DNA of 64,000 nucleotides from Clostridium sp. CAG:628. GTDB lineage: Bacteria > Bacillota_I > Bacilli_A > RF39 > UBA660. The notes under the pieces were generated by a model, which made no database searches, was not told the origin of the DNA, and saw only the letters and a program-made list of their open reading frames with translations. The DNA is taken from assembly GCA_000438415.1 (NCBI GenBank), contig FR902241.1, positions 2,330 to 66,329 of the forward strand, written 5' to 3'. The position numbers were made by a program, and so were the translations under genes. Every line of letters begins with the position of its first letter. Within the stretch, counting starts at the first letter, position 1. Positions 9,156 through 10,667 of this stretch are shown here, in pieces.

Positions 9156-9184
9156 TTGAAATTTACAAAACCATATGGTAAAAT
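9156..9184 (+). promoter_or_regulatory. promoter TTGAAA-17-TAAAAT for the clpX-like gene
   Basis: TTGAAA at 9156-9161 and TAAAAT at 9179-9184. A GGGGAG RBS precedes the ATG at 9210. Confidence 0.4.
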
Positions 9185-9209
9185 ACATTACAAATTGGGG
9201 AGTGGTTTT

Positions 9210-10667
9210 ATGGCTACAGAGTTTGGAATTATCTTAAATACTAAAAAAGAACAAAATTTTATTAAAATAAATGTAGAAAACATATTTTTTGCTGAAAATA
9301 AGGTTATTAAAACAGGTGAATATAAAAATTTTGAATATACTAAATTACCTAAAAGGTACGTATACTATGAAAATTATAATATACCTTGTTATATATACAA
9401 AGATGGAAATAAAATAATAATTAATAAGAAATTTGATTACAATTTAGGAATAGATGCCAACATAGATGTTCTAGCTAAAACGTGTATTGTATTTCTTAAA
9501 TGTTATTTGGTTCTTGATAACGAATATAATTATTCATTATCACTTTCTAAAACCATAACTTTATCAAATGATGAAGAACACCAGGCATATGAATATTATG
9601 AAGACTGGATATTATCACAATTTAAGGAATATGAATTATTAAATAATAAAGAATTAATTAATGAAGAAATTAAAAATGAACAAATAAGTAAAAATATAGA
9701 TGTTTTAAATATAATTAATAGTTTAAAAGAAAAGATTAAAGGTCAAAACGAAGCAATATATACTCTTGTACCAAATATTGTTTTAAATCAAAAACTAGTT
9801 ACAACTAATAACATAGATTTAATAAAAACAAGTAAAAATAATATATTAATTGATGGTAGTACGGGTACAGGAAAAACCCTTTTAACAACTGAAATAGGAA
9901 AACTACTTAACGTTCCATATATAGTAAGAAGTTCAACTAACTATAGTGGTGTCGGTTATGTCGGTGAAGATTTAAAGTCTCTTTTAGTAGACTTACTAAG
10001 AATTACGAACGGAGATCTTGAAAAAGCAAAAAGAGGAATTATATGTTTAGATGAAATAGACAAACTTGCAGATACAACTTTAGAAATAAGAAAAGGTATT
10101 AGTCAAGAACTTCTAACATGGATAACAGGCACTAATATTAAATTAGTATATAATAAAAAAGAATACAATTTTGATACTAGCTTGCTTACATTTATATTTA
10201 TGGGTGCTTTTTCTAAAATGAGAACAAAAAAGAAAAATAATTCTATTGGCTTTAAAAGTGATATACCAAAAGAAGAATACTTAACAAAAGACTATGTAAG
10301 TTTTGGAATGAATCCAGAGTTCATGGGAAGAATGAGTACTATTGTAACACTAAGAGACTTAGAATTAAAAGATTATAGTGATATATTAGTTAATTCCTCA
10401 ATTAGTCCATTAAAAGCACTTATAGACATAGGAAATTTATATAATGTAGAAATAACTTACACTGAAGAATTTATTGACTTAGTAACAAATAATGCACTAA
10501 ATAATGCTATTGGAGCAAGAGGTCTTCAAAGAGAAATTAATAAAGTAAGAAGCAAAATACTAATACCTATAATGACTAATCAAGTTAAAAGTATTACTTT
10601 AACAAGTGAGATGTTAAACGATAATTATATATTTGAAAAAGAAAAGACTTTAGAACTAAATCTATAA
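9210..10667 (+). CDS. ClpX-like AAA+ unfoldase with a non-canonical N-terminal domain (no C4 zinc-binding domain)
   Basis: Walker A GSTGTGKTLL, pore-1 loop GYVG, Walker B IICLDEIDK, an IGF-like loop (NNSIGFKSD), and sensor/arginine finger regions (PEFMGRMS, ARGLQREI). The sequence aligns along the whole ClpX ATPase module. The N-terminal ~190 aa show no resemblance to the ClpX zinc-binding domain. Confidence 0.65.
   Translation: MATEFGIILNTKKEQNFIKINVENIFFAENKVIKTGEYKNFEYTKLPKRYVYYENYNIPCYIYKDGNKIIINKKFDYNLGIDANIDVLAKTCIVFLKCYLVLDNEYNYSLSLSKTITLSNDEEHQAYEYYEDWILSQFKEYELLNNKELINEEIKNEQISKNIDVLNIINSLKEKIKGQNEAIYTLVPNIVLNQKLVTTNNIDLIKTSKNNILIDGSTGTGKTLLTTEIGKLLNVPYIVRSSTNYSGVGYVGEDLKSLLVDLLRITNGDLEKAKRGIICLDEIDKLADTTLEIRKGISQELLTWITGTNIKLVYNKKEYNFDTSLLTFIFMGAFSKMRTKKKNNSIGFKSDIPKEEYLTKDYVSFGMNPEFMGRMSTIVTLRDLELKDYSDILVNSSISPLKALIDIGNLYNVEITYTEEFIDLVTNNALNNAIGARGLQREINKVRSKILIPIMTNQVKSITLTSEMLNDNYIFEKEKTLELNL

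Follow-up and report, generated by a model that had tools for sequence, protein, structure and literature searches.

Introduction

ClpX is among the most conserved and best-understood degradation motors, and it selects its substrates via the zinc-binding domain, the RKH loops and the pore-2 loops. In Escherichia coli ClpX the RKH and pore-2 loops read the ssrA tag, and the IGF loops are the ligands of the H sites of ClpP (PMC9035409). In the present work we have analysed a gene for a ClpX-like AAA+ protein located in a stretch of 64,000 nucleotides of the genome of Clostridium sp. CAG:628 (contig FR902241.1, positions 2,330 to 66,329 of the forward strand; hereafter the window, with positions counted from its first letter). 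This protein has all three selection elements replaced or trimmed and retains the motor together with the tripeptide for ClpP docking.

A few described systems come close to this arrangement. Myxococcus xanthus ClpX3 is a ClpX paralogue without an N-domain and without the RKH loop (PMC11423568). Judged from its description, it is the nearest precedent, being an isolated paralogue that lacks the RKH loop; however, ClpX3 simply has no N-domain, and M. xanthus also possesses a canonical, essential ClpX1, whereas here a new folded domain is found. Mitochondrial CLPX has altered RKH and pore-2 loops and does not recognize the ssrA tag (PMC9035409). The protein under study resembles it as a motor of the ClpX family in which the same two loops are altered, and solved human CLPX is among its best structural matches, but CLPX is eukaryotic and bears no relation to the N-domain described below. 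Mammalian CLPX in fact retains the zinc-binding domain and has other insertions. HslU (ClpY) carries an I-domain insertion and binds HslV by its C-terminus and not by an IGF loop; our protein is likewise a single-ring AAA+ unfoldase of the ClpX/HslU clade, but it has no I-domain. Finally, the N-domain of ClpA and ClpC and the zinc finger of ClpE are flexibly tethered N-domains which bind adaptors or substrates above the ring. The general design principle of Clp/Hsp100 ATPases with exchangeable N-domains is thus shared, but ClpA, ClpC and ClpE are two-ring machines with known N-domain folds, none of which is matched by the N-domain of this protein.

A divergent AAA+ module of the ClpX type

The coding sequence (9210–10667, forward strand, as are all elements of the protein given below; 485 amino acids and a stop codon) corresponds to an identical 485-residue product of gene callers on public contigs and has about 60 full-length relatives. 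Residues 166–476 (9705–10637) constitute a ClpX-type AAA+ module with large and small subdomains, as inferred from profiles, PDB sequences and the predicted fold. The top NCBIfam match is the ClpX equivalog NF003745 (2.5e-46, model positions 42–402), the Pfam family AAA_2 (PF07724) scores 54.6 bits, above its gathering threshold of 27, and the top 15 PDB sequence matches are all ClpX, at about 1e-29 to 4e-32, compared with 2.5e-15 for HslU. In agreement, the AlphaFold2 model of the full-length protein, with a predicted local distance difference test score (pLDDT) of 85.4, retrieves ClpX in all of its top 50 Foldseek matches, with target-normalised template modelling (TM) scores of 0.66–0.85 and identities of 25–29%. 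The preliminary description, made from the letters alone, had assigned the C-terminal part to the ClpX family on the basis of its motifs, and both the assignment and the position of each motif (Walker A and B, GYVG, IGF, PEFMGR and the sensor region) are confirmed.

The catalytic motifs are conserved throughout an alignment of 48 sequences. These comprise the Walker A motif GSTGTGKT (residues 216–223; 9855–9878), with G216, G219, K222 and T223 invariant; the pore-1 loop GYVG (residues 249–252; 9954–9965), with G249 and Y250 invariant; the Walker B motif IICLDEIDK (residues 277–285; 10038–10064), with D281 and E282 invariant; the arginine-finger segment PEFMGR (residues 369–374; 10314–10331), with R374 invariant; and the sensor-2 segment GARGLQ (residues 435–440; 10512–10529), with R437 invariant. 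Alignment and model show the ATPase and translocation machinery to be intact. As in canonical ClpX, there is a single AAA+ module in which Walker A, GYVG, Walker B, pore-2, IGF, arginine finger and sensor-2 follow one another in the same order, and comparison with solved ClpX chains yields structure-based identities of 26–29% and TM scores of up to 0.85.

Nevertheless, this is not a normal ClpX. The module is very divergent, scoring less than half the NCBIfam equivalog cut-off: 158.4 bits for NF003745 against a cut-off of 359, and 131.6 bits for the second ClpX model, TIGR00382, against 370.75. HslU is the second-best NCBIfam family, and its 78.5 bits also fall below the corresponding cut-off of 362. 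Overall identity to canonical ClpX is only about 31%; for scale, the E. coli protein and ClpX of Clostridia are about 60% identical. The protein falls outside the ClpX equivalog on four points, namely the score, the zinc-binding domain, the RKH loop and the pore-2 loop. The changes therefore reach beyond the N-domain into the AAA+ module itself, which has no RKH loop and a truncated pore-2 loop.

Regarding these loops, MAFFT alignment with E. coli and other ClpX sequences and a per-sequence table indicate that the pore-2 region (10065–10106), which reads LADTTLEIRKGISQ, is 7 residues shorter than in ClpX and lacks the RDVSGEGVQQ of the full-length loop. The region equivalent to the RKH loop (10128–10178) is also 7 residues shorter and has no R-K-H/N. 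When some 120 relatives were tabulated, all canonical ClpX sequences were found to have the CxxC...CxxC ribbon, GGRKH or GKRKN, and RDVSGEGVQQ, whereas all members of the divergent clade were without all three.

A distinct situation is found for the IGF loop, NSIGFKSD (residues 344–351; 10239–10262), which carries a tripeptide of the ClpP-docking type and aligns with the IGF of ClpX from Listeria, M. tuberculosis and E. coli. I346, G347 and F348 do not vary among 15 family sequences, in contrast to the residues flanking them, and residues 347–352 have low pLDDT in the full-length model, as befits a flexible loop such as that of ClpX. The loop recognized from the sequence alone is therefore present and correctly aligned; its absence on careful alignment would have argued against ClpP coupling. 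Across the wider clade nearly all members retain the tripeptide as [IVM]GF, and in a few the loop is wholly deleted. This is the pattern expected of a functional docking element.

The protein ends in a conserved tail that is predicted to be disordered (residues 477–485; 10638–10664; K-x-K-T-L-x-L-N), in which L481 is nearly invariant and residues 479–485 have pLDDT below 50. Its family consensus, KRTLxxN, is common to the full-length family and to relatives of the P0067 type and is lacking in canonical ClpX; the tail might serve as a short motif for docking or regulation.

A new domain in place of the zinc-binding domain

In the position of the Cys4 zinc-binding domain of canonical ClpX lies an unrelated domain of about 150 residues. 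AlphaFold2 predicts a novel α/β domain for residues 1–145 (9210–9644), consisting of a long β-hairpin (residues 3–29), strands between residues 48 and 75, a helix (81–96), strands between 98 and 115 and a long helix (120–145); that is, the hairpin is followed by three strands, a helix, two strands and long helices that run into the linker. Modelled alone with an alignment of 14 sequences, the domain reached a pLDDT of 85.2 and a predicted TM score of 0.77, and the full-length model repeats its topology. A helical or disordered linker follows (residues 146–165; 9645–9704), whose length varies in the alignment and in which residues 149–160 have pLDDT below 50. The models confidently predict a separately folded, tethered domain. 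The preliminary description had proposed an N-domain of about 190 residues; an extra domain is indeed present, but ClpX homology begins near residue 166, so that domain and linker together amount to about 165 residues.

The only cysteines of the region are Cys60, Cys92 and Cys98, which form neither a CxxC pair nor a Cys4 ribbon, and there is no match to the zinc-binding domain PF06689 in Pfam; the ribbon is absent throughout the divergent clade and present in all canonical ClpX matches. The domain has no match in Pfam, NCBIfam, PHROG or PADLOC, its profile has no match below E = 0.7 among PDB sequences, and Foldseek finds no fold match in the PDB (best E 0.065, TM ≤ 0.27) and none among the viral folds of BFVD. 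Against 1.84 billion representative proteins the profile gave 11 matches, 9 of which were the own family or fragments of it. The remaining two, the giant repeat proteins P0160 and P0161, were considered as relatives and set aside as an artefact of summation over repeats (about 5–11.5 bits per repeat; LapA/Ig repeats in Pfam). The domain has, therefore, no relatives found outside its own family, in agreement with the initial impression of an uncharacterised region without zinc ribbon, and no database presents it as a known variant of the ClpX N-domain. It is under purifying selection, with a ratio of non-synonymous to synonymous substitution rates (dN/dS) of 0.23–0.29.

A comparison of the window with a closely related lineage represented by two independent samples (L099 and L100) evidenced a mosaic. 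Nucleotide identity is about 95% in the genes on either side and in the AAA+ module (dS 0.16–0.28), drops to 40–77% exactly over 9221–9700 and returns abruptly at the domain junction, which makes for a sharp 3' boundary. Within this segment dN (0.34) and dS (1.34) are both raised, compared with a flanking dS of about 0.2, and dN/dS is 0.26. This pattern indicates a diverged N-domain allele, putatively imported by recombination, or else old balanced alleles, rather than relaxed constraint. General hypervariability of the domain was rejected: in a sister group with proteins of 470 residues, conservation is equal in N-domain and AAA+ module, and the mosaic represents a single event within the species group of the window.

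Distribution and inheritance

Full-length relatives (467–500 residues, 43–49% identity) come from human and animal gut metagenomes. The full-length family spans six GTDB species whose labels read uncultured Bacilli, Tenericutes or Bacillota and whose G+C contents are 25–29%. Between genera the neighbouring genes are 57–68% identical, and the ClpX-like protein only 44–48% overall; its AAA+ module reaches about 57%, its N-domain about 25%. Within this small clade of gut Bacilli, which are low in G+C and uncultured, the gene is shown to belong to the core and to be inherited vertically.

Beyond this family there are relatives which also lack the zinc-binding domain and the RKH loop, with 32–43% identity in the AAA+ module and with other N-terminal regions of about 130–300 residues. 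Their hosts are other low-GC Bacilli, including 'Candidatus Coprovivens' and metagenome-assembled genomes of 'uncultured Mycoplasma sp.'; in GTDB, 'Candidatus Coprovivens' belongs to the order RF39 (PMC8035907). Their genes lie in differing housekeeping neighbourhoods (topA-X-pheST, aspS, mur genes), and in three loci of 'uncultured Mycoplasma sp.' and Bacilli genomes (L012, L013 and L014) the distant gene without zinc-binding domain always lies between topA and pheS-pheT, a conserved place other than the one beside pilC in the family of the window. The N-termini of the wider clade have a loose pattern in common with the N-domain described here; in hhalign comparisons the best p-value was 0.002, a weak match confined to a 44-column in-register stretch, and two other N-domain groups of the wider clade matched each other with 89% probability.

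The canonical ClpX sequences nearest to the protein (P0114 and P0090; L090 and L092) come from low-GC contigs resembling jumbo phages, with rIIB and DNA ligase. Kinship with them was rejected as an effect of base composition. On these contigs ClpX, HSP20, ClpS and ClpP lie close together, and ribosomal protein S21 is found in L090 only. Only one database name was retrieved, that of a distant relative, which NCBI calls 'AAA domain-containing protein'; public sources give no ClpX name, and our literature searches found no paper describing the family.

Probable partnership with ClpP and alternative explanations

We consider it probable that the protein is a hexameric ClpX-family AAA+ unfoldase and translocase which docks on ClpP and uses its new N-domain as selector. 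Such a hexamer would translocate substrates via its GYVG loops, and the IGF loops would most likely dock on ClpP and feed substrates to it; the best argument available for docking is that the IGF has been strictly conserved in proteins whose N-domains retain only about 25% identity. The N-domain, on its flexible tether, would be the probable selector of substrates or adaptors, taking over from the zinc-binding domain and the RKH loop, a role suggested by the replacement of the former, the loss of the latter and the reduction of the pore-2 loop. Recognition of the ssrA type is probably lost or different.

A number of observations weigh against this proposal. Using tblastn, no ClpP was found in the 64-kb window, nor in any family locus up to 10 kb from the gene, and neither ClpP nor a canonical ClpX in the window or in any of roughly 50 divergent-clade loci; clpP is immediately upstream of clpX in 66 canonical clpX loci fetched and in 0 divergent-clade loci. 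However, in most Bacilli clpP is not adjacent to clpX, so that the missing adjacency says little. A scan of a genome collection did not return the species of the window, and the literature on ClpP in RF39 or Mollicutes yielded nothing usable. The NCBIfam ClpX cut-offs are missed by such a wide margin that a claim of ClpX membership would be wrong. In the MAFFT alignment the IGF-bearing segment, between GAF and FG, is about 16 residues shorter than in E. coli ClpX, which might weaken docking on ClpP. Also, the role of the N-domain as selector is drawn by analogy with the N-domains of other Clp/Hsp100 ATPases.

The lack of clpP in these loci, the shortened segment and the branches of the wider clade that have lost the tripeptide altogether (L011, P0085, P0074 and P0072), from which it follows that the scaffold can exist without IGF, all speak for an explanation in which the protein is a ClpP-independent unfoldase or remodelling chaperone that disassembles complexes without proteolysis, the IGF being a relic or serving another contact. 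ClpX is able to unfold alone, and ClpX homologues do so in organisms without ClpP; the Mycoplasmatales, relatives of the order, are known to lack ClpXP, which also counts in its favour. A relic, however, would have decayed, whereas the three residues of the tripeptide are invariant across genera with such divergent N-domains, and the adjacency argument is uninformative in Bacilli. We regard this explanation as unlikely, although it ranks first among the rivals. Next, and rather improbable, is that the protein serves the type IV pilus or competence pseudopilus exclusively. It would then be co-regulated with the divergent pilC-pilD operon from the intergenic region they share, and would degrade or remodel a component or regulator of the pilus, a client recognised by its N-domain, which would be compatible with coupling to ClpP. 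Indeed pilD-pilC is the sole neighbourhood retained in every family locus examined, and the intergenic region of 133 bp contains two conserved back-to-back promoters (see below). Yet gene order is generally well conserved in small genomes, which makes adjacency weak evidence; distant members of the clade lie in the unrelated contexts mentioned above, pilB and pilin genes are elsewhere in the window, and no sequence link was found between the N-domain and any pilus protein.

An ATPase of the HslU type, or one from a mobile or defence element, is effectively refuted. HslU is the second-best family, some distant relatives lie directly downstream of topA, near which hslVU lies in Bacillus, and the AAA+ part strongly matches phrog_4339. 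But the ClpX score is twice that of HslU, the top structural matches are all ClpX, no I-domain is inserted between the pore-1 loop and Walker B, and the IGF loop, which HslU does not have, is present. A phage or defence origin was rejected, as no member of the family or of the clade was found in 2.9 million viral contigs, PADLOC gave only weak, generic AAA matches (best 3e-4), and the chromosomal position is stable, with conserved core synteny.

Under the preferred reading, that of a ClpP-docking motor with a new selector, the gene may be the remodelled ClpX orthologue of the lineage or an extra paralogue. In a more far-reaching version, to which we give little credence, the whole RF39-type clade would have replaced classical ClpX by a motor without zinc-binding domain and RKH loop as its only ClpX, and the N-domain would be a genuinely new fold acting as an exchangeable selector of substrates or adaptors, differing between families and swappable between strains by recombination, possibly driven by conflict with phages or other proteins that target or exploit the protease.

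Gene start, promoters and neighbourhood

The open reading frame spans 9156–10667 (forward strand), and its coding part proper begins at the ATG at 9210, where the protein starts as MATEFG, as in the preliminary description. A ribosome-binding site, GGGGAG (9197–9202, forward strand), lies 7 nucleotides 5' of this codon, within a block, GGAGTGGTTTTATG, that is kept in relatives. The TTG at 9156 is not a start codon; it belongs to the −35 hexamer of a conserved promoter of the sigma-70/SigA type, TTGAAA-17-TG-n-TAAAAT (9156–9184, forward strand), which in a consensus scan is the top site of the region with 10 of 12 matches. In such an AT-rich region the count of promoter-like sites is not above chance and alone lends no support; the assignment is made because the site is conserved across loci, TTGAtt...TGnTAgAAT being kept in all seven aligned upstream regions, from loci of different genera. 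For the divergent pilC-pilD operon the consensus scan also gave a site resembling a promoter, TTTAAA-17-TG-n-TATACT (9108–9136, reverse strand); seven loci from several genera share its extended −10 block, AAGTATAnCATA (reverse strand TATGnTATACTT), without any change. The gene had been proposed to have its own promoter and to diverge from pilD-pilC, and both statements hold, the former now on phylogenetic grounds and the latter by Pfam.

The divergent operon (6540–9076, reverse strand) comprises pilD (6540–7292; Peptidase_A24) and pilC (7301–9076; T2SSF). No other neighbours are conserved in every locus of the family that was examined, and both outer flanks vary; adjacency was established by tblastn in the window, L005–L010, L085 and L087, and by gene calls in L001–L004 and L099–L101. 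The PilC homologue has 591 residues; no T2SSF domain begins before about residue 256, and a hydrophobic, lysine-rich extension makes up roughly the first 190 residues. This extension is conserved in the related genera, where identity over the full length is 66–68%. Downstream of the clpX-like gene lies a convergent, pgsA-like gene for a CDP-alcohol phosphatidyltransferase (10675–11370, reverse strand; CDP-OH_P_transf), which is found at this place in most family loci and was not found downstream in L007.

Unlike canonical clpX, the gene is not beside tig or clpP, as had been noted from the sequence alone. In the window tig (24287–25555, reverse strand) faces a convergent pilB-like T2SSE gene, with neither clpP nor clpX there; between 22399 and 25555 the place of clpX next to tig is taken by this pilB-like ATPase gene and a pilin-like gene. 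Pilus genes are dispersed in the window, with pilB at about 23 kb, pilC and pilD at about 7–9 kb and a further prepilin at 4206–4865.

Among the other genes of the window, that for SmpB (38136–38558, reverse strand) leads one to expect trans-translation; ARAGORN found no transfer-messenger RNA (tmRNA) in the 64 kb. Two Fic/DOC-domain proteins (38642–39406 and 55475–56128, both reverse strand) are encoded in housekeeping contexts, one gene overlapping the end of rnr beside smpB and the other lying upstream of a class II aminoacyl-tRNA synthetase gene with a 4-nucleotide overlap. A homologue of MvaI/BcnI-type restriction endonucleases (13099–13896, reverse strand) lies beside tRNA-Leu and tRNA-Met and occupies the same position in related genera. 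A 422-residue protein without Pfam match (30676–31944, reverse strand) shows by eye repeats of about 35 residues (…DIYEFAKxVKGAxIxxL…), and a reading frame of 147 residues (12570–13013, forward strand), antisense to mscL (12581–13000, reverse strand), is almost certainly spurious.

Implications

The family represents, in uncultured gut Bacilli, a motor of the ClpX type whose recognition apparatus has been replaced, a finding that is notable rather than startling. Its definition would improve the annotation of gut metagenome-assembled genomes, given that no ClpX name is available from public sources. The host lineage consists of abundant, uncultured bacteria of the human gut with small genomes. 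If the protein works with ClpP, it would constitute a natural experiment in the re-targeting of an AAA+ protease by a new recognition module, and, because SmpB is present in the window, how tmRNA-tagged proteins are disposed of in these bacteria would become a question.

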